A DNA stretch of 64,000 nt from Mustelus asterias (GCF_964213995.1 NC_135801.1:96038001-96102000), one strand, 5' to 3'; numbered from the stretch's first letter, positions 24,880 to 62,310 are shown. Numbers and translations are program-made. Notes: generated by a model not told the origin, from the letters alone.

Positions 24880-24931
24880 GATGGCAGGCAATGGAAACAC
24901 TGTCAGACCTGCAACAAATGCGTGAAACCAT
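24880..24931 (+). CDS. ZCCHC4: ZCCHC4 exon (DGRQWKHCQTCNKCVKP)
   Basis: tag acceptor, gtgagt donor, phase 0 to 1. Confidence 0.94.
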
Positions 24932-28189: not shown

Positions 28190-28780
28190 AACAAAGAGAT
28201 GAACAGCACAGGAATAGGCCCTTCGGCCCTCTAAGCCTGTGCTGATCATGATGCCCTAATTAAACTTAAAAAAAACTTCTGCCCTCACTCAGTCTGTATC
28301 CCTCTATTTCCTCCCTATTCATGTACCCATCCAGATGCCTCTTAAATGTTGCTAATGTGTCTGCTTTCACCACCTCCTCTGGCAGCGCATTCCAGGCACC
28401 CAACACTCTGCGAGAAAAAACTCACCCTGCACATCTCCCTTAAACTTTCCCCCTTTCACCTTGAACCTGTGCCCCCTTATAATTGACACTTCCACCCTAG
28501 GAAAAAGCCTCTGACTATCCACCCTGTCTATGCCTCATAATTTTGTAGACCTCTATCAGGTCTCCCCTCAGCCTCCGTCTTTCCAGTGAAAACAATCCTA
28601 GTTTATTTAACCTCTCCTCAAAGTCAACACCCTCGAGATCAGGCAACATCCTGGTGAACATTCTTTGCACTCTCCAAAGCTTCCACGTCCTTCTGGAAGT
28701 GTGGTGACCAGAACTGCACACAATATTCCAAATGCAGCCTAGCCAAGGTTTTAAATAGCTGCAACATGATTTCCCAATCT
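28190..28780 (-). mobile_element. CR1 LINE 3' fragment
   Basis: VQRMFTRMLP...LGLFSLERRRLRGDLIEVYKIM. Confidence 0.85.
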
Positions 28781-31634: not shown

Positions 31635-31821
31635 TGAAGAGGCCAAACCACGTAAAAGAAAAGCTATGGAGACCGATAAAGACACTGCCACGAACAAATC
31701 TAAAAAGCAGGCCCACACAATGAGTACCGGAAAGAGGAAAACCCTGCAATGGGCAACTGGGAAGTCAAAAAGGAAACTGAAGAGGAAGAAGAAACAGAAA
31801 CGAAGGGGCCAGACTGCGTAG
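31635..31821 (+). CDS. ZCCHC4: ZCCHC4 terminal coding exon, Lys/Arg-rich tail ending in TAG
   Basis: Polypyrimidine-cacag acceptor, phase 2 matches the previous exon. Basic tail EEAKPRKRKAMET...KRKKKQKRRGQTA*. AATAAA about 60 nt downstream. Confidence 0.85.
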
Positions 31822-33278: not shown

Positions 33279-35381
33279 AACATAGAACATAGAACATTAC
33301 AGCACAGAACAGGCCCTTCGGCCCACGATGTTGTGCCGACCTTCATCTGAAACCAAGATCAAGCTATCCCACTCCCTACCATCCTGGTGTGCTCCATGTG
33401 CCTATCCAATAACCGCTTAAATGTTCCTAAAGTGTCTGACTCCACTATCACTGCAGGCAGTCCATTCCACACCCCAACCACTCTCTGCGTGAAGAACCTA
33501 CCTCTGATATCCTTCCTATATCTCCCACCATGAACCCTATAGTTATGCCCCCTTGTAATAGCTCCATCCACCCGAGGAAATAGTCTTTGAACGTTCACTC
33601 GATCTATCCCCTTCATCATTTTATAAACCTCTATTAAGTCTCCCCTCAATCTCCTCCGCTCCAGAGAGAACAGCCCCAGCTCCCTCAACCTTTCCTCATA
33701 AGACCGACACTCCAAACCAGGCAGCATCCTGGTAAATCTCCTCTGCACTCTTTCCAGCGCTTCCACATCCTCCTTATAGTGAGGTGACCAGAACTGCACG
33801 CAATATTCCAAATGCGGTCTCACCAAGGTCCTGTACAGTTGCAGCATAACCCCACGGCTCTTAAACTCCAACCCCCTGTTAATAAAAGCTAACACACTAT
33901 ATGCCTTCTTCACAGCTCTATCCACTTGAGTGGCAACCTTTAGAGATCTGTGGATATGGACCCCAAGATCTCTCTGTTCCTCCACAGTCTTCAGAACCCT
34001 ACCTTTGACCCTGTAATCCACATTTAAATTAGTCCTACCAAAATGAATCACCTCACATTTATCAGGGTTAAACTCCATTTGCCATTTTTCAGCCCAGCTT
34101 TGCATCCTATCTATGTCTCTTTGCAGCCTACAACAGCCCTCCACCTCATCCACTACTCCACCAATCTTGGTGTCATCAGCAAATTTACTGATCCACCCTT
34201 CAGCCCCCTCCTCTAAGTCATTAATAAAAATCACAAAGAGCAGAGGACCAAGCACCGATCCCTGCGGCACTCCCGCTAGCAACCTGCCTCCAGTCCGAAA
34301 ATTTTCCATCCACCACCACCCTCTGTCTTCGATCAGATAGCCAGTTACCTATCCAATCGGCCAACTTTCCCTCTATCCCACACTCCTTACTTTCATCATA
34401 AGCCGACCATGGGGGACCTTATCAAACGCCTTACTAAAATCCATGTATATGACATCAACCGCCCTACCTTCATCAACACACCTAGTTACCTCCTCAAAAA
34501 ATTCTATCAAATTTGTGAGGCACGATTTGCCCTTCACAAATCCGTGCTGACTATCCCGGATTAATCCGCATCTTTCTAAATGGTCGTAAATCCCATCCCT
34601 AAGGACCTTTTCCATCAATTTACCAACCACCGAAGTCAGACTAACCGGTCTATAATTACCAGGGTCATTTCTATTCCCTTTCTTAAACAGAGGAACAACA
34701 TTTGCCACTCTCCAGTCCTCTGGCACCATCCCCGTGGACAGCGAGGACCCAAAGATCAAAGCCAAAGGCTCTGCAATCTCATCCCTCGCCTCCCAAAGAA
34801 TCCTAGGATACATTTCATCAGGCCCAGGGGACTTATCGACCTTCAGTTTATTCAAAACTGCCAATACATCCTCCCTCCGAACATCTATTTCCTCCAGCCT
34901 ATTAGCCTGTAACACCTTCTCTTCCTGAAAAACATGGCCCCTCTCCTTGGTGAACACTGAAGAAAAGTATTCATTCATCACCTCGCCTATCTCTACTGAT
35001 TCCATACACAAGTTCCTACCACTGTCCTTGACCGGCCCTAACCTCACCCTGGTCATTCTTTTATTCCTCACATAAGAGTAAAAAGCCTTGGGGTTTTCCT
35101 TGATCCGACCCGCCAAGGACTTCTCATGTCCCCTCCTAGCTTTCCTCAGCCCCTTTTTCAGCTCATTCCTTGCTAACTTGTAACCCTCAATCGAGCCATC
35201 TGAACCTTGTTTCCTCATCCCTACATAAGCTTCCCTCTTCCTTTTCACAAGACATTCCACCTCTTTTGTGAACCACGGTTCCCTCACTCGGGCCATTTCC
35301 TCCCTGCCTGACAGGGGACATACCCTATCAAGGACACCCAGTATTTGTTCCTTGAAAAAGTTCTTTTCATCAGTGCCTTTC
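33279..35381 (-). mobile_element. Young 5'-truncated CR1 LINE, RT domain nearly intact
   Basis: 339-aa and 316-aa ORFs with YMDFSKAFDKVPH, PQGSVLGP and SKFADDTK; (ttctatg)n tail; attag duplicated at the flanks. Confidence 0.92.
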
Positions 35382-35695
35382 ATTAGTGTCACAAGTAGGC
35401 TTATAGTAACACTGTAATGAATTACTCTGAAAATCCCCTAGTCGCCACACTCCGGCGCCTGTTCGGGTACACTGAGGGAGAATTTAGTATGGCCAGTGTA
35501 CCTAACCAGCACATCTTTTGGACTGAGGGGGGAAACCGGAGCACCCAGAGGAAATCCAAGCAGACATGGGGAGAACGTGCAAACTCCACACACACACACA
35601 CGCACACACACACGCACACACACGAACACTGACCCAAGCCGGGAATTGAACCTAGGTGCCTGGCGCCATGAGTCAGCAGTGTTAGCCACTGTATC
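35382..35695 (-). mobile_element. V-SINE variant containing an expanded (CA)n tract at ~35588-35622
   Basis: Head and core present; the tail continues at 33260-33278, on the other side of the CR1 insertion. Confidence 0.8.
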
Positions 35696-35959: not shown

Positions 35960-36159
35960 NNNNNNNNNNNNNNNNNNNNNNNNNNNNNNNNNNNNNNNNN
36001 NNNNNNNNNNNNNNNNNNNNNNNNNNNNNNNNNNNNNNNNNNNNNNNNNNNNNNNNNNNNNNNNNNNNNNNNNNNNNNNNNNNNNNNNNNNNNNNNNNNN
36101 NNNNNNNNNNNNNNNNNNNNNNNNNNNNNNNNNNNNNNNNNNNNNNNNNNNNNNNNNNN
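35960..36159. other. Assembly gap (200 N)
   Basis: Run of N. Confidence 1.
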
Positions 36160-39021: not shown

Positions 39022-40925
39022 CACATCTACCAGCTAGAGTTGGCAAGCCTAAGTTTAGAAAACATACCAGAATATAAAAGCAGATATTTTTAAAATAGTC
39101 ACCTTGAGAGGAAGGACATGTAGAATAAATGAAATGGACAAAAAAAATTCCACTACAAATTTTACTGTGCACAGAATCAAATCAAAAGGACTTGCCCATT
39201 CTCATAAACGATTGAACAGTTTTTCTTGAGTTTTTTTTCTATATCCTTTCATATGATGTGAGAATCATTGGCAAGATCAGCATTTGTTGCCCATCCCTAA
39301 TTGTCTTTGAACTAAATGGCCTGTTAGGCCATTTCAGAGAGCAATTACGAGCCAACCACATTGCTGTAGGCCAGACCAGGTAAAGATGGCAGATTTCATA
39401 TTCTTAAAAATATTGCCTCGTTTGATGTTCGTGCAGTGTCTGGTGATGATTGAGGTCTGCAGCCACAAGCCTCTCCCACAGTCCAGTGTTAAAGTGCTGA
39501 CACAATACCAATGGAGAGAATAACTGATGCTTGGTTTAAAGAGAGTGATTTAAAGGGAAGTCACCCCAGAATCCAACCAAGGCCTGGACTGAGAGCATGC
39601 TTCGTGACTCTACCATCATTAACCTTGTGTGGAGACCAACCAAAGGCAAAAGCCTGTAGCATACAGCTGTGGACATTGTCATTCCAGGTCCTGCATCCCT
39701 CTTGACAGAGACTGTATGTGAATCATTGGTCCATTAATGCAGACCCCACTTACTCCCCTAAAGGGGCAGATTTAAGGCACCATTCAAAAATCCAGAGATT
39801 TGAGAGTCCTTTTGCAACATTCTAAAGTGTGGTTCAATTTTACTTTGAAAATTTGCCACTCGTGACAAGTTTGCAAGATGTGACATGTCTGAAAATGACC
39901 AGTGAATCAGTTAAAGTGCTGGTTATTATTGAAGCAGAAAATATGAAGGACATCTGCTATAGATTTTACACGCTGTTTATACTCTGCATAATTTCTCTAC
40001 CCCCCTTCATACCAGCCTAATTTGAAGTCTCTGCATTTCATTAGTTTTGAATTGTTTTCTACTGTGTGTAATCAGTGTTTACATTTGCTGCTTTCTCCCA
40101 CCATCTACCCCTTTTTAATGAATCTTAAATGACATCACTTCTATAAGTAGCCCAAGTGGTAGAAATTGTACTGTGGAGTAAGAGACACTTTGTCAGCCAT
40201 AATTGAATGGCGGAGCAGACTCGATAGGCCGAATGGCCTAATTCTGCTCCTATATCTTATGGTCTTGTGTACAATATTGAAGGGGCCTCTTTGGTGTGTG
40301 TCCCAAGCATACTTCTCCAATCTCTCAATAAACTTGTCTCGGGGAAAGATAGCATGATCAATTCAAATATAAGCTGACCCAACTATATTCAAATAAGGCA
40401 TTTGTAAACAAGTATTAAATTATTGCATCACAATTTAATTTCCACAATTTATGAAGCATATGTTTAAATTACATCTTGTTTTATGTGTATGACTAATGGA
40501 ACTAAACTAGTTATGTAGTAATTAGCAGAAAACAAAACTAAAAAGACTGCTGCAAACTGTTGCTCCAGAGCACATGCAGCATTCAGCTGCTACAATTATT
40601 GCAATCTCATTATCACAAAGTTGATGAGCCCATGTTCCATTTGCTGCAAAACAAACGCAACTCTACATCATTGCCTGTACTTTGATTGTAAAATGCCTGA
40701 GGCATCCAACAATTGGGAAAGGTGGGTATATAAATGCAAGCCTTTTCTTTCTTTCCAAATCTTCAGTTGCTGAATTGGAGGCAGAATTATTAATGTAAAC
40801 CAAGAATCAAAAACCAGGCTCTGAGATCATGCGTCTCATTTCTACGGCAATAGGCTAGAATTGAATCTCCTCATGTTCATTTAAATGTCGTTGAATTAAA
40901 GTTTAAAAATAAGCATGCATCCTGC

Positions 40926-41107
40926 TTATATGAGAGAACTGTGGGTGTCTTGCTCTTCATTCTCTTGCTGAGCAGATTCCACACTGTTGCAGCCACAGTG
41001 TCTCATGAGAAATGACTGTTGAATTGATTTCACCGATGATAAGTATATAACGGCGAGGATGAGAATGAAAAATGCAGCTGCAGCAACAATTACGATACCA
41101 GTGATTC
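40926..41107 (-). CDS. LRR transmembrane protein exon 7: TM helix and cytoplasmic tail (GITGIVIVAAAAFFILILAVIYLSSVK...EQDTHSSLI*)
   Basis: ttttgtcag acceptor, phase 1, about 22 hydrophobic residues, TAA stop. Confidence 0.87.
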
Positions 41108-41217
41108 CTGACAAAATGCAAAAATAACATCACAAACTGAAGTGAAAAAAGCTGCTGTGAAAATAAAGTAAAAATCCACAAGTTCATCACAATAAAACAG
41201 TAACAGTTGAATGTTAC

Positions 41218-41389
41218 CTTTTCCCAGATAGGAACGCACAATACCAGTTTTATTTGCCTGAGATGCTTTTGGTAAAAATGCAAAATGAGACTCTTTCGAG
41301 CAGTTAAAAAGAGAAACTGAAAGTTGGCTCATCCAGAATCCTCTGAGGCTGTTGGGACTGTTACACAACATATCCAGCTGTACCTGCAA
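41218..41389 (-). CDS. LRR transmembrane protein exon 6, LRRCT second half and stalk (LQVQLDMLCNSPNSLRGFWMSQLSVSLFNC...YLGK)
   Basis: CxSPxxLRG LRRCT motif. cacag acceptor, with an alternative in-frame cag giving a start at 41383. G|gtaaca donor. Confidence 0.87.
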
Positions 41390-41724
41390 CTGTGAAGAAC
41401 AAGATCCCAATATTATAGCCTGAATGGAATCTGGAATATACATGGTGTACATTTGTTAGCATACATTTCATAACACCTTACCAAGGGAATAGTTGTAGAT
41501 TATGTAGTATTAGGGTGATCAGGGTTCATTGGGTGGGAGTGGATAAACAGTACCACCACATGATGCTGTATGAGACACATGACCAAAGATTGAGGGGGAG
41601 ATTCCTCATGGCCTAGACTGAGTAATACCTAGTCACGCAGGCTGGAATGTTGGCTGGAATGTTTGTACTTTCGCGGGAGGAGTGTGCAATTGACAAGGGG
41701 GAGGAATCGAACATTATACATTTT

Positions 41725-43000
41725 CTCTTATTCTTTCACAGGATGTGGGTGTCGCTAGCAACACCAACATCTGTTGCTTATCCCTAATTACCCTTGAGAA
41801 GGTGATGGTGAGCCACCTTCTTGACCCACTGCAGTCCACAGTGCTATTAGGGAGTGAGATCTATGATTTTGATCCAGTGGTTTTGTCCTGGATGGTGTTG
41901 AACTTCTTGTGTGCTGAGGCTGCACTCATCCAGGTAAGTGGGTATTCCATCACACCCCTGACGTGTGTCTTGTAGATGGTGGACAGGCTTTGGGGAGTCA
42001 GGAGGTAAGTTATGCCACAAGATTCCTAGCCTCTGACCTGCTCTGGTAGCCACAATATTTATGTGGCTAGTCCAGTTCAATTTTTGGTCAAGGGTTGCTG
42101 CCAGAATGTTGATAGTGGAGGATTCAACAATGGTAATGCCATTGAGTGTGAATGGGTGATGGTTAGATTCTCTCACAGAATCCCTACAGTACAGACGGAG
42201 GCCATTTGGCCCATCGAGTCTGTCTGACCACAATCCCACACAGGCCCTATTCCCATAACCCCACACATTTACTCTGCAAATCCCCCTGACACTAGGGTCA
42301 ATTTAGCATAGCCAATCAACCTAACTCACACACCTTTGGACTGTGGGAGGAAACCGGAGCATCTGGAGGAAGCACACAGAGACATGGGGAGAATATGCAA
42401 ACTCCACACTGACAGTGACCTGAGGCTTGAATTGAACCTGGGTCCCTGGTGCTGTGAGGCAGCAGTACTAACCACTGTACCACGCTCTTGTTAGTGATGG
42501 TCGTTGCCTGGCACTTGTATGGCATAAATGTTACTTGCCAATTATTAGCCCAAGCCTGAATGTTGTCCAGGTTTTCCTGCACATTGACAAAGATTGCTTC
42601 CTGAGGAGTTGTGAATGATGCTGAACATTGTGTATTCATCAGCGAACATCCCCACTTCTGACATGATGGCAGGAAAGTCATTGATGAAGCAGCTGGAGAT
42701 AGTTGGATTGAGAACACCACCCTGAGGAATTCCTGTAGTGATGTCCTGGATCAGAGATGATTGGCCTCCCAACAACTACAGCCCATCTCCCTTTGTGCCA
42801 TACATGACTCCAACCAGTGGAGTTCTCCCCCCTGATTCTCTTTGACTTCACTTTTGCCAGAGTTCCTTGGTGTCACACTGGAGGAAATGGTGCCTTGGTA
42901 TCCAGGGCAGTCACTCTCCGCTCTTGAGTTCAGCTCTTTTGTCCATGTTTGAACCAAGGCTGTAATGAGGTCAGGAACCAACCGGCTGTGGTGGACCTTT
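41725..43000 (-). mobile_element. Degraded LINE (L2/CR1 superclade) RT and 3' end, with an HE1 SINE inserted at ~42175-42485
   Basis: GIPQGGVL..FINDFP..MFADE and DQKLNWTSHINIVATRAGQRLGIL. Confidence 0.78.
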
Positions 43001-43120
43001 TTAATATGCAAAACCTTCAAGACAGCCCTTAGTGTTTTATTTTTGAAAAAGTCGACTTCAATTTCAATAGTCCCTTATAAATGAAATGTAAATGTTCTGC
43101 TATTAATTTGAGACTTGTAC

Positions 43121-43338
43121 CTTCACAGTGTCCAACCATTTCTTCATTGAGCACATGCTGGCATCACAGTGAAATGGGTTTTGGGCCAGTTTGATGCTCA
43201 CAGCGCCACCTACTGACTGAACAATGGGATTGAGTGTTTCTTTGGAAAGGGTGACAAGCTCATTCCTGGACAAGTCCAGCAGCCTCAGATTCTTCTGAGA
43301 GTTGAAAGCTGATTTGCTTATAAACGCAATTCCTGACC
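43121..43338 (-). CDS. LRR transmembrane protein exon 5 (GSGIAFISKSAFNSQKNLRLLDLSRNEL...KLAQNPFHCDASMCSMKKWLDTVK)
   Basis: tttttgcag acceptor, AAG|gtacaa donor, phase 1 to 0. One LRR plus the LRRCT start NPFHCD. Confidence 0.9.
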
Positions 43339-44111
43339 CTGCAAAAACAATTCACAGTTTTGAAGTGAATAAACATAAAATAATCAAAATTTAGATGAAG
43401 GAATTCTATAAAGATGATTAAGCACAGACGTAAAGGAAATAGAACAGAGAGAGCCAATTGTTCCATAAAGGTCCAAGTGTTAAACTGTGACAGTGACATT
43501 TGACGCAGGTTTACTTTATATTATAGTTAACTATGAATATTGTCATATCTTGTTTGCAAAAAGACAATCAAATGAATGGAGTAATATAATATAATTAAGT
43601 AAACAATTTGCATATACAGTTGGTTAATATATTAGCAAACACTGTAGGAGTGATTTTGTAACCAGGGTGATCAGTCACTTAATATAAAGGCTCATCAGAC
43701 AGAGAAACAAAAGGTGACATCTTCTATATAATTCTCATTGTAGTGATTGCTGTGTGGAACTCTATATAAGGGTCTAGTTTTGTGCCCTTACATTTTACTG
43801 TACGGTCTAATGCCTACTTAATCTGGTGTCAGATGAGTTGTCTGAACTTCTTCACCTGTTTATTTAACAAAAGAAAAAGCAAACTGATTGTGCTAAAAGA
43901 AAATTGAGCAAAACAAATGACAGCTCAGTCAGAATCTGTCTGTGCCATAGATTCTCATTTGCATTTCACAACAACAACTTCAATTTAAATAGCACCTTTA
44001 ATGTGGTGAAGCATCCCGTGGAGTGTTACCAGGTACAATTTGACACCAAATCTGTTCACGAAAGTAACCCCAAAGTAAATGTTAGTTGAAATGAACCAAA
44101 AAATACATTCC

Positions 44112-44262
44112 CTCATGATGCTCCTTCATCAGGTGAGTCGGGTCTACACCGGAGCAGCTCTCCGAAAGCTTGTGATACCAAATAAACCTGTTGGACTTTA
44201 ACCTGGTGTTGTGAGACTTCTTATTATGCCCACCCCAGTCCAATGCTGGCATCTCCACATCA
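44112..44262. mobile_element. Short Penelope-like terminal remnant
   Basis: Shares accaaataaacctgttggactttaacctggtgttg...ccccagtcca..gctggcatctccacatc with the 52466 and 56575 elements. Confidence 0.72.
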
Positions 44263-45875
44263 AAATTAGTCAGAACTGTAAACCATTGCAAATAAAAGAA
44301 ATAAACAATAACAAATGCTGGAAATACACATTCAGTTAGTCAGTAGTTCAGGATCTGTTTGTTGAGAGTTCTGTCTGAGCAGAACTTTTCAAAATTGAAA
44401 ACCAGAAGATGACCAAATGTTTTAGCAGAATGGGAAAAAGGTAGAGAAGCCGAAATTGGCATTGAATATTGCCTCAGAGAGGATGTTATTGGAATTAATT
44501 ACTTGAAGCCGACTTAAAAGAAAGCAGGAAATTATTAAGATTAATTGTTTGGTAGTATAAAGAATGAGTAGTGTTGAAAAAAGACATTCTGTCAAAGGCT
44601 TTTTGTCTTTCACTCAGGACAATCACAAAAACACCAACATCAGGGGTATTATACTCTATAAAAAAGGGGGATGATTGGTTGGCCAGTGGTCTCTGATCGA
44701 TAGTGTTGTTCCCATGGTGAATGCACCAGCTGACGGAGGCTGCTGAGGTTTGGGTGACATAAGATATTTGGAGAAATTTTCTACTTCATTATTCCCAGTT
44801 GTGCAATTGTGCACCCAACCCATGGATTTCTAATGTTAATCCCTGCTGTTTCTGATGGGTTGAGAATAGTTGAATTAGTGTAGAAGTCAGAGTGGGAATT
44901 GTTGGAGAAATCAAAGGAAAGGGAAATCCACTAGAGAGTTAATGAGGTGGCCGACTTGCTGTCATCCGCTTCTCACCAGGTGGTAATAGTTAAAATCCCA
45001 TCCTACGTGCAAATTGCTGTCTAAAGGCACAGTACTGAGGCAAGAGGTAAATGGATATGTTATTCCTGTTGCAGCTGTATTGACAAGTCTAAGGGGAAGA
45101 GTTGCTCGAAGTAGAGATGGTGGAAGACTGAAGAGTGGTAATGGAGAGGAAGCAGTCTCCCTGAGCATAGAAGGGTGAGGGGAGATGTAGTAGTGGGATC
45201 ATGTTATAGATGGCACATCAGACTTTTGATTGGACCTACTTTATATTAAGTTGATCTTTCTCTACACCCTAGCTGTGACTGTAACACTACATTCTGTACT
45301 CTCTCCTTTCCTTCTCCTCTATGGTCTCTATGAACGGTATGCTTTGTATAGCGCCAAGAAACAATACTTTTCACTGTATCCCAACACGTGACAATAATAA
45401 ATCAAATCAAAAATCAAACATGATGATCCGATTAATACAAGGATCGGTGGAGTAGGAAGTGTGAACAAGGGTTGGAGATGGTTAAGCACAGAGGTAAAGG
45501 AAATAGAACAGACACAGCCAATTGTTGCATTGACTTTCAAGGGGAAACATCAGCTCTGGAAGGATGATTCTGTCAAAATGATTTCCTTATAGTTTTCTGT
45601 TCTTAAATCTAATAAAAACCTGAATCTGATTTTTCACATAATATGTTGGCTGTGTATTTCCAACATGTGTTTTTATTTCTATTTTTTCTATATATTTGAC
45701 AATCTATAAACAGATTATGTGATAAAATATTTCTCTTCCCTTTTGGAAAAAAATGCAATCATGTAATTTCAATGAATTGCAAGTAAATTAGGAGCACTAA
45801 AACAACTCCTGAATAATCTAAGGAGAAATAAACTCTTAACATTCAATAGAGAGACTGGTTAGTGTACACTTTTAC

Positions 45876-46029
45876 CTGACAATCGTAGCGTCTGTAGCTT
45901 GGTCAATTTATAAAAGTACTGCGATAATATTCTGCTGATCTTATTATTGGATAAGTCCAGGTCCTGAAGCAACTGCATTTGATTAATGACTGGTACAAAT
46001 GTGAGGTTGAGGCCTCTGAGAATCAGCAC
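45876..46029 (-). CDS. LRR transmembrane protein exon 4 (VLILRGLNLTFVPVINQMQLLQDLDLSNNKISRILSQYFYKLTKLQTLRLS)
   Basis: tttccttcag acceptor, G|gtaaaa donor, phase 0 to 1, LQDLDLSNNKI repeat. Confidence 0.9.
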
Positions 46030-46204
46030 CTGAAGGAAATAATTTAACTTTAGTCAGTCTCTTTTCATGCTCTTTATAAATGGAGACATTAACATCCACA
46101 CTATTCGGCCCCAGCTTATCAAAGGAAATTCCAGAGTATTAATCTCGCTGCTTTCCTGCATAAGTTTTCTATGTGTCAGGACTGCAACTGTGTTTGCTTT
46201 TTTT

Positions 46205-46503
46205 ACAAAGTTTTTATTTATTAGTGTCACAAGTAGGCTTACATTAACACTGCTATGAAGCCACTGTGAAAATCCCCTAAACGTCACACTCCAGCATCTA
46301 TTCAGGTACACTGAGGAGGAATTTAGCATGGCCAATGCACCTTACCAGCACGTCTTTCAGACTGTGGGAGGAAACCAGAGCACCCGGAGGAAACTCACGC
46401 AGATGGGGAGAATGCGCAGATTTCGCACAGATAATGACCAAGCCGGAAATCGAACCCAGGTCCCTGGCACTGTGAGGCAGCAGTGTTAACCACTGTGCCA
46501 CCC
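46205..46503 (-). mobile_element. V-SINE variant
   Basis: Head, core and tail. Confidence 0.82.
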
Positions 46504-48204
46504 TTGGCTGCTGATGAATAAAAATGACCTGACTTTAGCACATCCGATTTGTCAGATATTTACAGCACTTTCTCATTTGTTGTGCTGATCATGAATGTAA
46601 ACTTCCAGAGACCTTGGAGACTTTTATCAGAGTCCAAGTAGGATGTTTGCAGTCAATCTGACCTGCATAACAGAAATGCTTCATCTGGACCTGCACTGCC
46701 AATTTTTAGAGTGTGAGCCAAATTAATTGCAAAGGAGTAACACAGTGGGTTTACTTGGTGTGGTGAAGCGGACCAGCACCTCCACTGGAAAGAATGCCAC
46801 CATCACAAGTGACACCTTCACTTCTGACACCTGGATACCATGCCACTGCCACATCTCCCCACCCACCCACCCCACCAAATTCCTGCCTTTGGACCCTACA
46901 GAAACAATTGCTGTTTATGCCTGAACCTCTTTCTGTTCTGATAGATCGGGCTAATGACCTACTTCTATTGTTAAAAGTTCTTTGGCTTCCTCATTAACAC
47001 ATGAACTGGCTCAGACCCAATATTGAGTCAGACTCGGTCCAAGTCAGGAAAGTGAAACATTTTGGCAGAAAATACTTTGCAGTATTGAGCTCCTTTGCTG
47101 AGAGAAAAAGGTTAAATAGCTCTGGCAGGCAGTGGGATAACAATCAGGTGGACTCAACAGGTCAAGCAGGTTTTGGGAGAGGGAGAAGGTTTCTTGTTCC
47201 TCATTAACTCAACATTGACAACACTTGAAGATTGCCAAGAGTTTTCTCATCAGTATAACACTTGACTTCCGGATACCTTCCTCTTTGTTCCCCCTCGGCT
47301 CAGAACCCTCTTTGATTATGTCTCTCAAGAGTTCTTCCTGCACACATGACTCTTTCTTTTTCAGACCCAGTGCAAAATGGCTGTCATGCTAATTTCAAGA
47401 TGAGCCATTACTCCATCAGGGAAGGAAGTTAATCATATTGAAGTCCTTTGAAGTCCTTTCCTGTCTCCTCTTCTCACAGAAGCTAAAGAGTCTTCACACC
47501 TTTAGAAGATTCAATGGACAGGCCTGGAGGAGTCTTGCATTTTAACAATTCTGGAGATAACAGAATCTGGCGAGGTCTGAACAAATATAGAAAGCGCCAA
47601 TATATCTGTCCATACTTTACTTTTGAAAGGGGCTTTTAAACTCAATTTAAAGATTTAAGATAAAAATACACCTTTAAAACAGTTGTCCTTAAAATCTACA
47701 ATACAACTACACTTTTGTGCCAGTACCAATTCTCAGCAAAGATATATTATAATAAAAGCAGAAGTTATTGAAAATACTCGGCACTTCCAGTGGCATCAAT
47801 GGAGAGAGAAACAGAGTTAACGGCTGCGCTGGACCTCGGTCCGGCAGAAGTGGGAAGTCGGGAGGATTTCTGCTGGTGAGCAGAGTGGGTGAACATGTTG
47901 AATTGTGCATCACGCACCTAATTAATTATGCTGCTGGGAGGATTATGTCGCTTTGCATGGCAGGGCGAGTAGGAAGTCACACACCCCACCAACATGTCCA
48001 GGCACCATATTTAAAAGACAGACAGCAAGTAATTCATCACACCAGGAGTCCAGGACACCAAGATGGCCCCCAGAAAGCAGCAGGCACTGGCCTCATGGTT
48101 CACTGATGGCTCCCTGGAGACTCTCCTCCAGGCTGTGGAGGACAAGAGGGACATTCTCTTTCCCAGAGATGGGAGCAGGAGGCCCACCTGAGGCTTATTC
48201 TTAC

Positions 48205-48308
48205 CTTAATCTTTCTCAGCGGGATTAGTGCTTGATATTGAAAGTCTTGAAACTGTGCTTGGGGCCCCAAGTATAGCTCCCTGAGCTCCTGCAAATTCTC
48301 AAAAGCAC
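48205..48308 (-). CDS. LRR transmembrane protein exon 3 (GAFENLQELRELYLGPQAQFQDFQYQALIPLRKIK)
   Basis: tttttgattag acceptor, AAG|gtaaga donor, phase 1 to 0. Bridges exons 2 and 4 in both frame and LRR register. Confidence 0.87.
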
Positions 48309-48439
48309 CTAATCAAAAACAAACCTTATATCAATGTGACACATTTTGAATTACATCAGGATAGATAATCTAACAGAACAAATTATCCACCCACCATAAA
48401 AACAATATGATTCTGATTCCCAGCTAGTACTGATGAAAA

Positions 48440-48600
48440 TTTACCATGGCCAGTCCACCTAACCTGCACATCTTTGGATTGTGGGAGGAAACCGGAGCAC
48501 CGGGAGGAAACCCACGCAGACACGGGGAGAACGTACAAACCCCACACAGATAGTGACCCTAGGCCAGAATTGAACCCGGGGCCCCTGGTGCTGAGGCAGC
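48440..48600 (-). mobile_element. V-SINE fragment
   Basis: V-core sequence. Confidence 0.75.
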
Positions 48601-48789
48601 AACCAAAATAGTTTGGAAATTGAAGTAATTCATGCATCGCTATTATTTCACACTTCCAGGATCTGTGGTATTTTGCTTGCAGTTTCACTATCCCCCACCC
48701 ATTCCCTATGACCCTGCACATGATTCCCTGTCAAATATCTATCCAATTTCCCCTTGAAAGTAAGCATTAATGACTTAATTAAACACTTT

Positions 48790-50497
48790 ATGCAGCAAAT
48801 TAGAGGAGTAAATTGGAAGGAGGTATTCTTGGGGAAATCTACTGAAGAGAGGTGGCAGTTTTTCAAGGAATGTCTGTCTAGGGTTCTACAGGACAATGTT
48901 CCGAGCAGACAGGGAAGAGTTGGTAGGTTAAAGGAACCGTGGTGCACGAAAGCTGTGCGGGACCTAGTCGAGAAGAAAAGGAAAGCGTACAAAAGGTTCA
49001 GAGAGCTTGGTGAAGATAGGAATCTAGATGAGTATACGGCTTGAAAGAAGGGACTAAAGCAGGAAATTAGGAGAGCCAGAAGGGGTCACGAGAAGGCCTT
49101 GGCAAGTAGAATTAAGGAAAACCCTAAGGCAGAGGTGCTTAATGAGTATTTTGCCTCGGTTTTCACAGAGGAGAAGGACCTGGGTGGATGTACTGTGGGC
49201 TTGCGGTGGACTGAAAAGATTGAGTATGTGGACTTTAACAAAGAGGTTGTGCTGGAATCTTTGAATGGCATCAAGATAGATAAGTCGCCGGGTCCGGATG
49301 GGATGTACGAAGGGAAAGCGGTAGATGTGGTTTATATGGATTTTAGCAAGGCGTTCGATAAGGTCCCCCTTGCAAGGCTTCTAGAAAAAGTGAGAGGGCA
49401 TGGGATCCAAGGGGCTGTTGCCCTGTGGATCCAGAACTGGCTTGCCCAAAGCAGGCAGAGAGTGTGTATAGATGGGTCTTTTTCTAAATGGAGGTCGGTC
49501 ACCAGTGGTGTGCCCTAGGGATCTGTTCTGGGACCCTTGCTGTTTGTCATTTTCATAAATGACCTGGATGAGGAAGTGGAGGGATGGGTTGGTAAGTTTG
49601 CCGACGACACGAAGGTTGGTGGGGTTGTGGATAGTCTGGAGGGATGTCAGAAGTTACAGAGGGACATAGATAGGATGCAAGACTGGGCGGAGAAGTGGCA
49701 GATGGACTTCAACCCAGATAAATGCGTAGTGGTCCATTTTGGCAGATCAAATGGGATGAAGGAGTACAATATAAAGGGAAAGACTCTTAGTACTGTGGAG
49801 AATCAGAAGGACCTTGGTGTCCGGGTCCGTAGGACTCTAAAATCGGCCCCGCAGGTGGAGGAGGTGGTTAAGAAGGCGTATGGTGTGCTGGCCTTTATCA
49901 ATCGAGGGATTGAGTTTAGGAGTCCAGGGATAATGATGCAGCTATATAAGACCCTCGTCAGACCCCACTTGGAGTACTGTGCTCAGTTCTGGTCGCCTCA
50001 TTACAGGAAGGATGTGGAAAAGATTGAAAGGGTGCAGAGGCGATTTACAAGGATGTTGCCTGGATTGAGTGGCATGCCTTATGAGGATAGGCTGAGGGAG
50101 CTCGGTCTTTTCTCCTTGGAGAGACGTAGGATGAGAGGAGACCTAATAGAGGTATATAAGATGTTGAGAGGCATAGATCGGGTGGACTCTCAGAGACTTT
50201 TTCCCAGGGTGGAAATGGCTGCTACGAGAGGACACAGGTTTAAGGTGTTGGGGTGTAGGTACAGGGGAAATGTTAGGGGGAAGTTTTTCACACAGAGGGT
50301 GGTGGGTGAGTGGAATCGGCTGCCGTCAGTGGTGGTGGAGGCAAACTCAATAGGGTCTTTTAAGAGACTCCTGGATGAGTACATAGGACTTAATAGGATG
50401 GAGGGTTATAGGTAGGCCTAAAAGGTAGGGATATGTTCGGCACAACTTGTGGGGCCGAAGGGCCTGTTTTGTGCTGTAGTTTTCTATGTTTCTATGT
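48790..50497 (+). mobile_element. CR1 LINE, 5'-truncated with internal deletions
   Basis: 292-aa RT C-terminal ORF (GKFADDTK, LVRPHLEYC), in-frame stop in PQG (ccctag), tttctatg tail. Confidence 0.9.
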
Positions 50498-51489
50498 TTA
50501 TCTGTTCTACTTTGATTCAAGTTTTCTTTTCTTATCACCCATCTTTGCTCTTTTTTCCAGCTCACCCACCACCCCTTGCAGATTATGATTTGCGTAGGTA
50601 ATTTTACAACCAGCTTAATTATCGATGCAGCATCAGAATGGGGGTTATTACATCCGATTCTTGTAATCAGTGGAGCTGCTGTTAACACTTGTCTTGAAAA
50701 TCCAGTGAGGAAAATGTCAATGTTCAAAGCCCTACTTCTGAAAATTGAGCACATAAGCTGGACAGGCATTTCAGTACAGACGCAGGGAGTGCTGGTAAGC
50801 ATGGGTTGGCAATTGGATGGGAGGTAGGGGGCAAAGGTGTGTACTGAATTGGCAGGGTGAGACAGATAGTGTTCCCATGGCATCCATTGTGAAGCTCCAG
50901 TGTTTCACCATAATTATCATTGACCCAAAAGAGGAATGCAGAGGGTTATATATCAAAGTTTGAAAATGACACCAAGTTGGTGAAGAAAGAAAGACTTGCA
51001 TTTCAATAGCTCCTTTTGAGGCCTTGGGCCTTGGAGAGCTGTCAGCCAATCTGATCCCAGATCTTTGAGGAGAGGGCGCCCCAAATCTGAAGGGACCTTC
51101 TCACCTGAGGTCTATTTAGCATCCTGATCTAACTGGTGCCTGCCAATCTAATAATTGAGGCTGGCAGAAAAATGCCCTTAAGTGGCCGTTAAGTGCCACT
51201 TAAGGGCCTTAATAGGGGCATAGGCAGGCCTTCCGTCCAAGGCCCTGTCCTCCCTACTGTGAAATTGTGTCTGGGTTAGGGTGGGCAGGGTTCTGGAGGG
51301 AATCCGTTCCATGCAATTTACAGTCCCCGCCCTAACCCCACCTGGGGATACTGTAAAATTCTGGCAAGCAAGCTTGCACAGGACAAAGTGACAATGATCA
51401 AATAATCTAAATGATAATGATCAATTTTCGTGATATTGATTCATGAATGCGGTGAATTCTTCAGGTGATGCGGTGGGTATAAAGGAGAT

Positions 51490-52440
51490 ACACGGATTAA
51501 ACAAGTGGGCAAACCTCTGACAAAAATGGAATTCAATGTTGAGTAGTATGTGGCCATCTACTCTGGACCCAAGAAAGACAAGACAAAGTATTTTCTAAAT
51601 GGTAAGAGGCTGGTAAGAGGCAGCGGAACAAAGAGATTTGGGTGTCCCCAATACATAAATCTCTAAAAGTAACTGGACAGGCACAAAAAGCAATCATAAA
51701 GACTATTAGTCTTCATCTTGAGGGGACTGGAATACAAAGGGGAAGATGTTCTGCTTTTGTTATACAGAGTCTTGGACAGATTGTGTTCAGTTCTGGGCAC
51801 TGTGGTGTAGCAAGGATATATTGACCTTGGAGGGGGCGCAGCATAGATTCACCAGAATGATACTGGGGCTGAAAGGATTAACTTACAAGGACAGGTTGCA
51901 AAAACTTACCTTGTATTCCTTGGTTACATAGAATTTACAGGATAGAAACTGGTCTGTGTGTGTGCTCCACAGGAACCATAGGGAGGTTCACTGGACTGAT
52001 TCCTGGAATGAGGGGGTTAACCTATGAGGAAAGGTTGGACAGGATAGGCCTGTATCCATTGAAGTATAGAAGAATGAGAGGTGGTCTTATTGAATCTTGT
52101 AAGATCTTGAGGGGACTTGGCAGGTGGATGTTGAGAGGATATATCCCCTTGTGAGACAGACTAGAATAGGGGGACACAATTTAAAAATAAGGGGTCTTGC
52201 CTTTAAGATGGAGATGGGGGGAATGTTTTTCTCTCAGAGGGTCGTGAGTCTGTGGATCTCTATTAGTCTATTGTGGTGGAGGTAGGGTCAATGAATATTT
52301 TTAAGGCCGATGTTGATAGATTCTTTATTGACAAGGATGTCAAAAGGTACGGGTTAGGAAGGAAAGTGGAGTTAAGGCCACAATCAAGTGGCAGAGCAGG
52401 CTTGAGGGGCCAAATGGCCTACCCCTGTTCCTAATTCGTA
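51490..52440 (+). mobile_element. Two degraded CR1 3' fragments
   Basis: CVQFW..LEGAQHRFTRMI and RFTGLIPGMRGLTYEERL. Confidence 0.75.
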
Positions 52441-52465
52441 TGCATGTATGTGTATGTAAATATTG

Positions 52466-52690
52466 TAAGAAGTTTAACAACACCAGGTTAAAGTCCAACA
52501 GGTTTATTTGGTAGCAAACGCCACTAGCTTTCGGAGCGCTGCTCCTTCGTCAGTAGCCACTCCATTTGATGAAGGAGCAGCGCTCCGAAAGCTAGTGGCA
52601 TTTGCTACCAAATAAACCTGTTGGACTTTAACCTGGTGTTGTTAAACTCCTTACTGTGTTTACCCCAGTCCAACGCCGGCATTTCCAAAT
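52466..52690. mobile_element. Short inverted-repeat Penelope-like remnant with hammerhead-like motifs
   Basis: Inverted arms of ~87 bp; 13-bp TSD tatgtaaatattg at 52453-52465 and 52691-52703; termini match the 56575 element. Confidence 0.8.
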
Positions 52691-54088
52691 TATGTAAATA
52701 TTGCCATGTGTGTCCATACTCTGGTGGCCCATACCACTGCCAGAAATTCCTGATGCCTCATCCCTGTTGTTGGTGGAGAACAGTTGAACAATAACAGTTT
52801 AACCAAAGAAAGCCCCATCCCATTGTGCCTGTGCTGGTGTTTGTCTTCAACCTTTCCCCATGTCAGTGGCAGAGATGTTCCATTCTAAAGCACTGACCTG
52901 CATCACTTGGATAGGCACAAAGCTTGCCTAATCAAAACATAAACATTTAAGAAGATACATTTATTTTAGTATACCACAAATTAATGAGCATCATATGGTT
53001 GAAATATTGGATATATATCCAGAACGTTATTAGAATGATGTATGACAAAGAAAGTCACTCACCAGCCATCCTTATAACTCCAGTCAATTCACACGAATCA
53101 CTTCCTGGGCGATTGAACTGTCAGAGTGTGACATCCAATCACAAATCTATCACATTTCTTATTGTGTGCAGCATATTTTTTGCCAAGTGCTGCAGTTTGT
53201 CATTTAAAACCACAAAGTCTCAAAAATGCTGTATCTGAGCAACCCTACAAGGTGCAGTAATATTTCTTAAGGATGTAGGTCAAACAGAATTCAGTCTGAC
53301 CTCAATGAACAAATTTCAGATGAAATGTTCTGATTCAACTTGTATCTTTCTCAGAATCTGAGAACCAATTGTCTTGGAATATGTAAGCATGTAACTGTAA
53401 TTTTGTTAGGTCTGTCTAAAATTATATGTTTTATAAATACTTGCGTCTACTGCAGATTTATTGATATGGTTTTTCTTTTATTACAACTTGGAAAAGTACG
53501 TAATTGGCTTTAAATCACTTTGGGACGTTCTAAAGCCATAAAGGAGACTGCATAAATGCAAGTTCTTTCTTTTGTAACAAGTAAACTTCCACTCAACAGC
53601 CAAAGAAATATTAATTTGGTGGAATTAAAATACCATAAAATTTACTTTTTCACATTGAAACTTTTCCATGTTGTTTAAACTAATTATATTTTAATCCGTT
53701 TTTTGATTATGATGGAGCCATTAGTGGGAGACTGTGGTGTAGTGGTAATGCCACTTGGTTAGTAATCCATAGGCCCAAGCTAATACATTTGGGGACATGG
53801 GTTTAAATCCCACCATAGCAGCTGGTGGAGTTCGAATTAAATTACAAAATCTAGTGTTGCCTATTTGTGACTCCCGAACCACAACTGCACTTGACAAATG
53901 CCCACTGTAAGAGTCTTGTAAGCCACTCAGTTCAACGGGTGGGCAACAAATGTATATCCTAGTAACATTCCATGATCAATCAATTGATTTTTGGTGGTCT
54001 TCGCTGAGGGGAAAATTTGTGATCAAGTCAGGTGTCACTTGTGTCAAAAATAAACGATTTATCAATGTAGATGGGTAAATGGACATAC

Positions 54089-54275
54089 CTGATTTAATTT
54101 CCTTGATGTAATTGTTGCTGATAACTAGGACTTGAAGCGAAGTTAGCAGAGCCATTGGTTTGGAAGGAAAATCCGTTAACCTGTTGTCATGTAGATAGAG
54201 TTGCCTAAGACAGGATATGTTTGTAAATGTTGTGTCCTCTACAACCTCCAAATTAGAACTATTCAGGAATAGCAC
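54089..54275 (-). CDS. LRR transmembrane protein exon 2 (VLFLNSSNL...LRQLYLHDNRLTDFP...LQVLVISNNYIKEIKS)
   Basis: ttccag acceptor, G|gtatgt donor, phase 0 to 1, canonical LxxLxLxxNxL repeats. Confidence 0.9.
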
Positions 54276-55522
54276 CTGGAAGCAAACACGGAAGATGCAG
54301 ATTAACCAAATTTATTTGATGTTAAATAGAAGCCTGATCAAGATAATTCCATATCTGATCTCTATAGTATTTTCTCAGGAGAATTGTTAATAACTTTCAC
54401 TTTCCAGTCACAGTGTGGGTTACTATTTTGTTTCTGATTGTCATGGTGAACAGCCAGGCATAATGTTGTTGCAGTCATTTATCATTAATAAATCTGCTCA
54501 AAACTATGTATCGAATAGATTAGAGGTCACTTGAAGAGCCCGTGAGCAAACGCAATGCCTGCAAACTTTTCTTCCTATCATGTGAGTTGACTTCTGCCCC
54601 TAGAAATTCTGATATGTGCTCTCAGCAAACAGAGCCTCATCCCAGAACAATTTTAAAATGTACACTTGTATCTCATGTTGATCTGTAGTCATTGTCAGGC
54701 TTGTAAAACTTAATGCATAGGTAATATTCTCATAAATGTTCACTTTCTAACTTAAATATGCCATTTACAAATAAGCCTGACCTAAACATTTTGCTCAAAT
54801 TTAACCTCATTTTTTATCATCTGGGAAAATCCATTTGATGACAAATTATGTACAGATACCTTTGCATGAAATTCTTTCTTTAGTCCCTTCTTTTGGTAGG
54901 GGTATTGTCCTATTTATTCTAAATGGGTTAATGCATCTATTAAAATAATGAGAAATATAATTTAACATGAATATAATCAGTGTTTATATACCGCCATTGC
55001 AAAGTGCAATTATATCCTCTGGGAATTAAAAAAAAGACGTATATTGGATTTTATGTTAAATTGGCACTTTCTTTCATTTTGAACAGAAAAAGTAGCTGAG
55101 GTGTAAACTTCTGAATACAGTCAGATTCCCAAAAACAAACAACACATTTTGTTCTTGGAATATTTCTGATCATATTCTGAACCCAGCATTTTGACAGTAT
55201 ATATTAACACATTCATTGTTACTCTGCCTCTCCAAATAATAATTCAACCACTGCTATTTTGATTGAAAAACTGCCTAAAGTTATTCCGATTATTCGTAGC
55301 AAGAAAACACCTACTGCCTTAACTTTGATAAAAAATTTATGCAGTACGTTAGCAATCTAAATACAGAAGATTCACTTCCAACGTCACTTAATTTCCACAA
55401 TTGTGAACTTACAAAAGAAGTACGCCTACTTAAAATAATTTGCTTTAAAGAAACTAAGATCTTTTCTTCAATAAGTTTATAATGAACTATTAATTTAAGA
55501 TGAAGAAACTCCAACTCCTCAC

Positions 55523-55720
55523 CTGTAATTGGTTGTAGTCCCTCAGGCAGTCATAATAGCTTCTTCTGAGTCTGAGGCCACTGAGGTTCAGAACAGATAT
55601 ATTTTTGCTAATGGGTTCATTCAGTTCTAGCGGACATTGGGTTGAATGTGTCACTAAGGTTCCCAATGAGGCAACATACAAAAAGCAGGCAAATGTATAG
55701 AAAAGGAGAGCGGAACCCAT
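55523..55720 (-). CDS. LRR transmembrane protein exon 1: signal peptide and first LRR (MGSALLFYTFACFLYVASLGTLVTHSTQCP...ISVLNLSGLRL...YNQLQ)
   Basis: ATG in aacATGG context, hydrophobic leader, CAG|gtgagg donor, 198 nt, phase 0. Confidence 0.85.
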
Positions 55721-56574: not shown

Positions 56575-57691
56575 GTGGAGATGCCGGCGTTGGACTGGGG
56601 TAAACACAGTAAGAAGTTTAACAACACCAGGTTAAAGTCCAACAGGTTTATTTGGTAGCAAAAGCCACACAAGCTTTCGAGGCTCTAAGCCCCTTCTTCA
56701 GGTGAGTGGGAATTCTGTTCACAAACAGAATTTATAAAGACACAGACTCAATTTACATGAATAATGGTTGGAATGCGAATACTTACAACTAATCCAGTCT
56801 TTAAGAAACAAAACAATGGGAGTGGAGAGAGCATCAAGACAGGCTAAAAAGATGTGTATTGTCTCCAGACAAGACAGCCAGTGAAACTCTGCAGGTCCAC
56901 GCAACTGTGGGAGTTACAAATATTGTGACATGAACCCAATATCCCGGTTGAGGCCGTCCTTGTGTGTGCGGAACTTGGCTATCAGTTTCTGCTCAGTGAC
57001 TCTGCGCTGTCGTGTGTCGCGAAGGCCGCCTTGGAGAACGCTTACCCGAATATCAGAGGCCGAATGCCCGTGACCGCTGAAGTGCTCCCCAACAGGAAGA
57101 GAACAGTCTTGCCTGGTGATTGTCGAGCGGTGTTCATTCATCGTTGACAACGGATGAATGAACACCGCTCGACAATCACCAGGCAAGACTGTTCTCTTCC
57201 TGTTGGGGAGTACTTCAGCGGTCACGGGCATTCGGCCTCTGATATTCGGGTAAGCGTTCTCCAAGGCGGCCTTCGCGACACACGACAGCGCAGAGTCGCT
57301 GAGCAGAAACTGATAGCCAAGTTCCGCACACACAAGGACGGCCTCAACCGGGATATTGGGTTCATGTCACAATATTTGTAACTCCCACAGTTGCGTGGAC
57401 CTGCAGAGTTTCACTGGCTGTCTTGTCTGGAGACAATACACATCTTTTTAGCCTGTCTTGATGCTCTCTCCACTCCCATTGTTTTGTTTCTTAAAGACTG
57501 GATTAGTTGTAAGTATTCGCATTCCAACCATTATTCATGTAAATTGAGTCTGTGTCTTTATAAATTCTGTTTGTGAACAGAATTCCCACTCACCTGAAGA
57601 AGGGGCTTAGAGCCTCGAAAGCTTGTGTGGCTTTTGCTACCAAATAAACCTGTTGGACTTTAACCTGGTGTTGTTAAACTTCTTACTGTGT
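56575..57691. mobile_element. Penelope-like element as a ~1.1 kb inverted duplication (GIY-YIG C-terminus plus terminal repeat), inserted in an HE1 SINE
   Basis: Arms 56604-57146 and 57148-57691; peptide MNEHRSTI..PVGEHFSGHGHS..EQKLIAKFRTHKDGLNRD; flanking direct repeat atccccctgac. Confidence 0.88.
57586..57630 (+). ncRNA. Putative minimal type I hammerhead ribozyme (mirror copy at 56665-56709 on -)
   Basis: cac-CTGAAGA-a-ggggc/ttaga/gcctc-GAAA-GCTT-gtg: core boxes, stem II hairpin, palindromic AGCT stem III, short stem I. Confidence 0.62.
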
Positions 57692-61391: not shown

Positions 61392-62310
61392 GGGGCTCGA
61401 TTTTACCAAAACTTGGCGGAAAGTTGGGCATCGGGCCTATACCGCGATCTGCACCCGATTCCGAGCAGATCGTGGCTTTACCAACACCCGATTTGGGTGC
61501 GGGTCCGGCCTGTGCCCGAATCGGGCGGCCCGATGATTTAAATGCATTTGTATGCATTTAAGTCGACAGTGAACCACGCGCCCAACCCTACCACCAAATC
61601 CCACTTTACCGTCTTCTGGCCCGTTCTGCATCCACGCTGTAAGCGACCTGCAAAATAAAAGTCTGAAGTCGTCACTGCAGCTTCCGAAGAGCAGGATCAG
61701 AGCCTGCAACGGCTCTCTGACCCAGGTCATCCTCTGGGGGGGGTGGGGCCAGATCATCCTCTGGTCGGCAGGGGTGGGGTGGGGGGTTCCGCTGCCAGTC
61801 TGCGGCTGATCGGTGGGGAGGGAGGGGGCAGGGGGGTCCGCCGCCACTCTGCGGGCGATCCCTCCTCCCCACCGGAGGAATGAATCCCTCCTGCCGGAGT
61901 GGACGTGCGGCCATGCCATCCCACAAAACCTTCAGGATGAAGCAATTCCTTGCTAAGAAGATGAAGCAGAACCGGCCGATTCCACAGTGGATCCACATGA
62001 AAACCGGCTACAGGATCAGTACAAGTCCAAGAGGAGACTGTAAAGGGATACACCATCATTGGTACACTGCCGGCCAGAGCCATCTCTCCCGGTCTCTTGC
62101 CCCTGCAGGGAAAAGAATCTGTGGCTGGTAGTGTACCAGTGATGGTGTATCCCTTTACAGGCCCAGCTTGGTCCTTCTCCAGTGTCTCCTCTTGGACTTG
62201 TACTGATCTTGTAGCTGGTTTTCATGCGGATCCATTTTCACGCGGATGAAAAAAACATTTCAGAGATGCAAACTGAACGAGCCCCGACACTGGGAGTTTT
62301 TAAAATTCAT
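61392..62310. mobile_element. GC-rich MITE-like element containing an RPL39 retrocopy
   Basis: ggggctcgattttacc start, CpG-rich body resembling the other GC-rich elements. Right end is uncertain. Confidence 0.5.
61913..62234 (+). pseudogene. RPL39: Processed RPL39 pseudogene with partial inverted duplication
   Basis: Intronless [32 protein letters not shown] followed by a frameshift. The inverted copy at 62130-62234 encodes WIRMKT...KRRHWRRTKLGL*. Confidence 0.9.

Follow-up and report, generated by a model that had tools for sequence, protein, structure and literature searches.

Gene structure and product of LOC144497247

A 64,000-nucleotide stretch of the Mustelus asterias genome (GCF_964213995.1, NC_135801.1:96038001-96102000), referred to below as the window, holds on its minus strand a gene for a predicted leucine-rich repeat (LRR) receptor, LOC144497247, which sits between ZCCHC4 and ANAPC4. 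A preliminary description, made from the sequence of the window, had proposed seven GT-AG coding exons with matching phases that splice into 1215 nt (198+187+104+154+218+172+182) and a stop-free open frame of 404 residues. This model proved exact, as its product is the same in 404/404 residues as the RefSeq protein XP_078074387.1 (here P0001), which excludes a chance splice. The RefSeq label reads 'uncharacterized protein LOC144497247 [Mustelus asterias]'; thus the gene, described earlier as unassigned, is indeed unnamed, as is its family, yet it was already annotated as a model.

All exons lie on the minus strand. Exon 1 (55523..55720, 198 nt) carries the ATG and encodes the predicted signal peptide (~aa 1-26), a reduced one-Cys N-cap and LRR1; an in-frame stop is found 38 codons upstream of the ATG, with no earlier in-frame ATG. 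Exon 2 (54089..54275, 187 nt) encodes LRR2-LRR4 with the N71 glycosylation sequon (Pfam LRR_8, E 4e-10), exon 3 (48205..48308, 104 nt) the 25-residue LRR5 bearing an L-x-L-G-P motif common to an ascidian family discussed below, and exon 4 (45876..46029, 154 nt) the 22-residue LRR6, LRR7 and the start of LRR8 (Pfam LRR_4, E 5e-7). LRR8-LRR9 and the first half of the LRRCT (C272 and C277, spacing C-x4-C) come from exon 5 (43121..43338, 218 nt), and the remainder of the LRRCT (C296, C317) with the stalk from exon 6 (41218..41389, 172 nt). The coding part of exon 7 (40926..41107, 182 nt) supplies the transmembrane (TM) helix (aa 345-368, 41107-41037), a 36-residue tail with C382/C384, the S-x-I C-terminus and the stop. 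The introns measure, in order, 1247, 5780, 2175, 2537, 1731 and 110 nt. The curated Pfam cut-off was passed by exons 2, 4 and 5, all with LRR families, and nothing in the other four exons rose above it.

The comparison with read contigs covered 40300-42300, that is, one of the six junctions (intron 6). Run X1, which we guess to be RNA and which bears another organism code at ~94% likeness, gave one contig on 40586-41084; on this basis the likely 3' untranslated region takes up at least 40586..40925, and ATTAAA hexamers follow beyond it at 40439 and 40119. A second X1 contig, 382 letters long, fits 41217-41391 with its first 175 letters, which is exon 6 give or take two bases at each end, and the remainder is unmatched in the compared stretch. 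X1 left most of introns 5 and 6 uncovered and gave no listed joint over intron 6 within 40300-42300, which we do not count as evidence. The exon 6 contig hints, if weakly, that a relative makes a spliced transcript with the acceptor at 41389 in use. Run X2 gave a single contig running through 40300-41757, and none of the runs recorded as RNA was listed as holding the LOC144497247 stretch. The eight listed differences between X1 and Mustelus exon 6 amount to five amino acid changes and no stop, a number too small for a judgement on selection. At the start of exon 6, AG acceptors at 41389, 41383 and 41377, spaced by 6 nt, are all in frame and stop-free; because the orthologue models vary there by two residues, alternative use of these acceptors is possible.

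Protein architecture and predicted fold

P0001 consists of a hydrophobic N-terminus, nine LRRs starting at residues 41, 65, 89, 113, 137, 162, 184, 208 and 232, an LRRCT, a 26-residue stalk, one TM helix with a hydropathy peak of 3.15, and the tail. The preliminary description had read this layout well (about nine LRRs, LRRCT, stalk, one TM helix), although it gave the tail as about 38 residues rather than 36, and the signal peptide that it named is a prediction from hydrophobicity and a predicted N-terminal helix. The N-cap is short, with a single Cys (C29) before LRR1, and the four LRRCT cysteines are invariant in 13/13 orthologues. The TM segment contains a conserved alanine run and is followed by only two basic residues, K371 and R381, with no basic cluster. 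No Ig domain was found in P0001, the LRRCT being followed by the stalk only, and Pfam gave no match to a TIR domain.

An architecture of LRRs, LRRCT, a single TM helix and nothing else, with the signal peptide taken from hydrophobicity alone, is that of the extracellular LRR-only type I membrane proteins, for which many singletons are described in the available part of PMC2235866. LOC144497247 represents a known kind of protein but a new family.

Structure prediction followed by a Foldseek search, as proposed in the preliminary description, gave a confident LRR horseshoe. AlphaFold on a 40-row alignment reached a mean pLDDT of 79.9, with the LRR core above 90 in most blocks and both the horseshoe and the TM helix confident; an alignment of 18 close orthologues gave a pLDDT of 43.3. 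The top Foldseek folds were NGL3 and NGL1. In the VIA-align comparison the Nogo receptor (Z 30.8, rmsd 2.5, 280 aligned residues) and NGL3 (Z 29.8, rmsd 2.7, 286 aligned) were tied within ~1. Since the 40-row alignment contained NGL and other paralogues, the fold ranks are not independent of NGL, and the likeness to NGL3 and the Nogo receptor demonstrates no function. The fold, signal peptide and membrane topology are all predicted.

Conservation in cartilaginous fishes

Orthologues with the same layout were detected in 19 other cartilaginous fishes. Rays and skates account for eight of these (one represented by a fragment) and named sharks for nine; the other two are Callorhinchus and a further species. 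Among the orthologues are XP_038647394 of a catshark and XP_055494023 of a skate. Their identity to P0001 is 66-90% in elasmobranchs and 64% in the chimaera over the full length, and 138/404 positions are invariant across the 13 orthologues compared. A second Callorhinchus record, V9KU28, shows two differences from P0026 and presumably belongs to an mRNA-derived series. On the family profile, scores of 686-812 bits for the full-length orthologues contrast with 122 bits for the best non-orthologue. The RefSeq names of the orthologues conflict (chondroadherin-like, LRRC4B-like, vasorin-like, SLITRK4, LRRTM4-like, LINGO-like) and are best-hit labels.

Only one copy of LOC144497247 was found among 91 matches in the Mustelus genome, and no further LRR exon was found in the window and the next 200 kb (6779 frames). 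Elsewhere in the genome, at G000:C72:3.33-3.39 Mb, six or more single-exon LRR frames of 470-1060 aa stand in tandem. Cetorhinus has two loci (P0015, P0016), one of them modelled with an unrelated N-terminus, reflecting either duplication or an assembly artefact.

Relationship to ascidian LRR proteins and to the NGL/LRRC4 family

We lean, by a modest degree, towards a family of ascidian LRR-TM proteins as the nearest kin of the P0001 family. It includes Ciona XP_009860829, Styela XP_039264697 and Clavelina XP_076811373/4 (P0219, P0220, P0223-P0226, P0231, P0234 and P0261 in our set), named 'slit homolog', which is a mislabel, or 'uncharacterized'. Its members have a single TM helix, a short tail and modules of nine LRRs, in most proteins a pair of them; Clavelina P0261, with one module, a TM helix and a short tail, has the layout of P0001. 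In LRR-domain trees the P0001 and ascidian families are joined with support of 97/91 (40 rows, LG+G), 91/81 (20 rows, mixture model) and 95/91 (25 rows, mixture model); a wrongly anchored Phallusia segment was removed before the 40-row tree was built, and the smaller sets were subsets of our own choosing. A profile of four ascidian domains placed P0001 first among 26 shark-side LRR proteins, at 147 bits versus 107 for the next. The motif [LIV]x[LI]GP[NQ] in LRR5 occurs in 25 proteins of the P0001 family, in 12 of the ascidian family and in 1/324 others. The two families have in common the nine-LRR module, the lack of Ig, the single TM helix and short tail, the L-x-L-G-P motif followed by L-R-x3-L-x2-V-P, and an extended segment before the LRRCT. 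They differ in that the ascidian proteins mostly carry two tandem modules, a full Cys N-cap and a C-x-C LRRCT, have repeat lengths of 23/23 at the signature, exist as several paralogues per species and are only 26-29% identical to P0001. At least four Clavelina paralogues are found on one contig, two of them with adjacent accessions, and in one Styela member the N-terminus carries a long repeat rich in His and Asp.

The closest named vertebrate relative of the P0001 family is likely NGL/LRRC4. The three best paralogues in the Mustelus genome (L006, L007 and L009) are single open frames of NGL3, NGL1 and NGL2, names that we assigned from sequence reading and PDB matches. P0001 could accordingly be viewed as a fourth, Ig-less NGL/LRRC4 branch, sister to NGL1-3 within vertebrates, with the ascidian family as an outgroup or co-orthologue of both. 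We regard this placement, and with it NGL as the nearest kin, as possible but distinctly less probable than the ascidian one. Several observations speak for it or against the ascidian kinship. The repeat lengths 24-24-24-24-25-22-24-24 are common to P0001 and all three NGLs and to those only, and over profile positions 112-235 a gap-free alignment was obtained only for the three NGLs (3/215 non-orthologous LRR domains). The NGLs are the top non-orthologues on the family profile (122 and 117 bits, versus at most 103 for the ascidian family), occupy Foldseek ranks 1-3, and appear as named LRRC4C/4B/4 clusters in rows 1, 2, 4, 5 and 6 of the Atlas structure search. In pairwise BLAST P0261 prefers NGL2 (119 versus 85 bits), P0224 is tied, and P0219 and P0220 favour a CHADL-like locus. 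A profile of 14 ascidian domains narrows the margin to 151-164 bits for the best orthologues versus 142, the branches joining the ascidian family are long, and the LRR5 motif was picked after the alignment had been seen. By the approximately unbiased (AU) test NGL sisterhood was rejected with the smaller set (p 0.037), whereas the larger set did not reject it (p 0.124). The reciprocal picture is divided: ascidian profiles pick the P0001 family, while the shark profile prefers NGL. A genome search with the Ciona protein gave no better single-exon match and missed the multi-exon LOC144497247.

Against an NGL branch stand the identity of just 28-30%, the grouping with the ascidian family in three trees, and the seven coding exons of LOC144497247 in comparison with one open frame per NGL in Mustelus. 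The likeness covers nine LRRs including the 25-/22-residue pair, the LRRCT, one TM helix, a fold TM-score of ~0.6 and a class I PDZ-type end, the last in the shark members of the P0001 family only. Nine LRRs are given for NGL3 in the legend of Figure 1 of PMC3230378, and the Ig domain is a feature of the NGL family (PMC10084454), while P0001 has none. NGLs have a four-Cys N-cap and P0001 one Cys; P0001 further differs in its C-x4-C LRRCT spacing and 36-residue tail, its family lacks the ETQI end of NGLs, the residues contacting netrin-G and LAR are not kept, and the locus is separate, all three true NGLs being found elsewhere in the Mustelus genome. Judged by its sequence, P0001 is not an NGL, since it has no Ig domain and no Cys N-cap, has only 7/45 concave residues in common, and places a glycan sequon on the netrin-G contact surface. 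Whether the ascidian family or NGL is nearest, the P0001 lineage is likely old.

Other LRR families are more distant, and the searches gave no named vertebrate gene as a reciprocal match, which would have removed the novelty of the locus. LRRTM1-4 have an LRR-only ectodomain, one TM helix, a C-x4-C LRRCT (seen also in amphioxus proteins) and no Ig, but their identity is 24-25%, their repeats are regular 24-residue units, their long tail ends in ECEV and their ectodomain lies in one open frame. P0001 was not grouped with LRRTMs in any tree, although such a clade was not rejected by the AU test (p 0.145). The Nogo receptor (RTN4R) family, which is GPI-anchored, has the best VIA-align Z and a horseshoe of similar size, a likeness of fold only; it is 22-24% identical to P0001, which has a TM helix. 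The TM helix also sets P0001 apart from the chondroadherin group, despite the 'chondroadherin-like' label of several orthologue models. LOC144497247 is a gene separate from the Chad3 of PMC11917481, which in the available part of that paper is in tandem with chad2 and whose Amblyraja accession differs (XP_032869114 against XP_032888042).

Likely absence from bony vertebrates and alternative identities

The preliminary description had suggested a lineage-restricted or amniote-lost receptor. The restriction stands but is wider than a loss in amniotes, as the gene was found only in cartilaginous fishes, with likely relatives in sea squirts. No bony-vertebrate orthologue was present among 7999 scored candidates, in the best 150 of 29,805 matches (1.84 billion representatives, cut at 164 bits) or among the Atlas clusters, where feature searches gave generic LRR clusters. 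In a simulation without indels, and hence optimistic, the 164-bit cut was passed by 20/20 full-length orthologues at 40% identity, 15/20 at 35% and 12/20 at 30%. A search that combined ascidian and shark sequences in one alignment brought up ascidian proteins and long arthropod ones but no shark proteins, and so provides no test of bony or jawless orthologues. Judging from these searches, LOC144497247 is likely absent from bony vertebrates, and only likely because orthologues below ~35% identity may be missed. We found no paper on the family in a literature search that was thin on subscription journals, and it is not named in the available parts of PMC8455134 and PMC3466250.

The gene might instead persist, fast-evolving and under another name, in bony vertebrates or jawless fishes, so that there would be no lineage restriction. 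This is favoured by the sensitivity limit just given, by the fact that only the best 150 matches were examined, and by the 88 bits scored by the real one-module ascidian protein, well under the cut; such escapes count against the presumed loss. We nevertheless consider a hidden orthologue unlikely, given the slow change within cartilaginous fishes, the cliff in profile score from 725 bits for the orthologues to 122 bits, and a duck interval table listing SLC34A2, ZCCHC4, ANAPC4 and PI4K2B with no LRR or unnamed gene (Table 2 of PMC10875613, as far as available). The corresponding list for cattle, in the available part of PMC11350750, names no LRR gene and contains three unnamed Ensembl ids.

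A TIR-less innate immune receptor or decoy resembling CD180/RP105 or CD14, one of the roles raised earlier for this gene, appears more doubtful still. The LRR ectodomain and short TIR-less tail would suit it, a CD180 cluster stands at rank 8 by Atlas features, and Toll-like receptor (TLR) ectodomains are among the fold matches (Z at most 28). Toll-like receptors and CD180, however, have ~20 LRRs, and P0001 only nine; the gene is single-copy and changes slowly, with 64% identity to the chimaera. In the PDB sequence search TLRs reach at most 78 bits versus 110 for NGL3, and the nearest structures are NGL, the Nogo receptor and LRRTM. The other role then considered, that of an accessory protein of ion channels in the manner of BK gamma (LRRC26/38/52/55), is very improbable: an LRR-only ectodomain, one TM helix with a conserved alanine run and a short tail are in keeping with it, but BK gamma subunits have six LRRs, not nine, and a basic cluster after the TM helix that P0001 lacks. 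A pseudogene or chance splice of LRR-like fragments, for which one could cite only the missing junction-spanning read for Mustelus and the guessed RNA nature of X1, is already refuted at the sequence level by RefSeq models in many species and by an open frame and cysteines that sharks and chimaera have both conserved.

Genomic neighbourhood

The convergence of LOC144497247 with ZCCHC4 reported earlier holds: ZCCHC4 is on the plus strand, with exons spanning 16772-31821 of the window, and its exon with the methyltransferase motif matches PDB 6uca (E 1e-13), while a second exon gave no match in the PDB. Its zinc-finger exons were recognized by motif at ~22325, 24898 and 26852, and the probable last exon, lysine-rich, is followed by AATAAA at 31882. 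ANAPC4 lies just past the window end on the minus strand (G000:C1:96105426-96122539; L031, L052, L053; Pfam PF23405), its apparent last exon ending, by eye, ~11.7 kb before the LOC144497247 ATG. In the same region Pfam PF10237 missed ZCCHC4, and PF12896 and PF12894 missed ANAPC4. On the flanks of ZCCHC4 and ANAPC4 follow, in the mammalian order, SEPSECS and one match each of PI4-kinase and SLC34 type. ANAPC4 was likely inverted between the shark and human lineages, with LOC144497247 in the breakpoint interval, because shark ANAPC4 faces ZCCHC4 whereas human ANAPC4 is on the same strand as ZCCHC4.

A 200-N assembly gap at 35960-36159 separates ZCCHC4 from LOC144497247 and leaves the exons untouched. 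Long reverse-transcriptase frames, which we take to be CR1-type LINEs, occupy 48724-50412 (plus strand, inside intron 2 of LOC144497247), 33362-35437 (minus) and 8321-9322 (minus). An inverted pair at 56917-57378 contains short frames resembling GIY-YIG endonuclease, presumably Penelope-like elements. Several short, partly repeated fragments on both strands at 61850-62240 and in L031, which translate like ribosomal protein L39, are likely a processed or repeat-borne copy.

Proposed function and significance

NGL1 and NGL2 hold netrin-G on the concave LRR face, where loop I is contacted by I61, V63, N66, L80, H84, Q87, I104, S108 and H111; a glycan put on this face abolishes netrin-G binding, and NGL3 requires Q96 for LAR (PMC3230378, available part). 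In P0001 the N71 sequon, kept in 13/13 orthologues, aligns with NGL1 S108, and N45 provides a second concave sequon in 11/13. The position of NGL3 Q96 is a serine, the contact strand of the NGL N-cap has no counterpart, and the 7/45 concave positions matching NGL1 compare with 8 for LINGO1 and 5 for LRRTM1. Because of the missing cap strand, the sequon at S108, the exchange of Q96 and the few concave matches, binding of netrin-G or LAR by P0001 seems unlikely.

Of the roles raised earlier, adhesion or recognition fits best by analogy. LOC144497247 would then encode a predicted glycosylated single-pass cell-surface receptor, likely an orphan recognition or adhesion molecule that goes back to an ancestor early in chordate history and that bony vertebrates have likely lost, a reading to which we assign a probability of about 0.55. 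Conservation peaks over LRR3-9 (mean 0.875). Since the conserved glycan sites occupy the concave side of LRR1-2, LRR3-9 together with the C-cap would be the part of the ectodomain that contacts a protein partner, located on another cell or in the matrix; netrin-G and LAR are unlikely partners. As the 36-residue tail has no enzyme or TIR domain, P0001 would depend on a co-receptor, a partner chain or a scaffold for its signalling or positioning. Possible palmitoylation at C382 (kept in 12/13 orthologues) or C384 (10/13) may help to position it. So would, in sharks, the S-x-I end, which fits a class I PDZ-type motif and terminates all the shark proteins listed except one alternative isoform. Some points weigh against this reading. 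The suggested role is taken from fold relatives, and the S-x-I end is absent from rays and chimaera. Over LRR3-9 the concave face has 11/35 invariant positions versus 45/97 in the loops and convex side; as conservation is not concentrated on the concave face, a partner may bind on a lateral or convex surface.

More tentatively, LOC144497247 may be the living form of an Ig-less, intron-bearing pre-vertebrate gene that, of all jawed vertebrates, cartilaginous fishes alone retain and that bridges the ascidian family and the NGLs, the NGLs having gained Ig and lost introns, and the loss in bony vertebrates having come with the ANAPC4 inversion; we hold this scenario to be improbable as a whole.

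The distribution of NGLs across animals is unstudied according to a review (PMC10084454, available part). The ordinary architecture of P0001 limits the surprise. Cell-surface LRR receptors determine synaptic and tissue specificity, and LOC144497247 stands as a concrete candidate for a recognition system of ancestral vertebrates, possibly dropped in the bony ones, and gives a handle on the origin of the NGLs.

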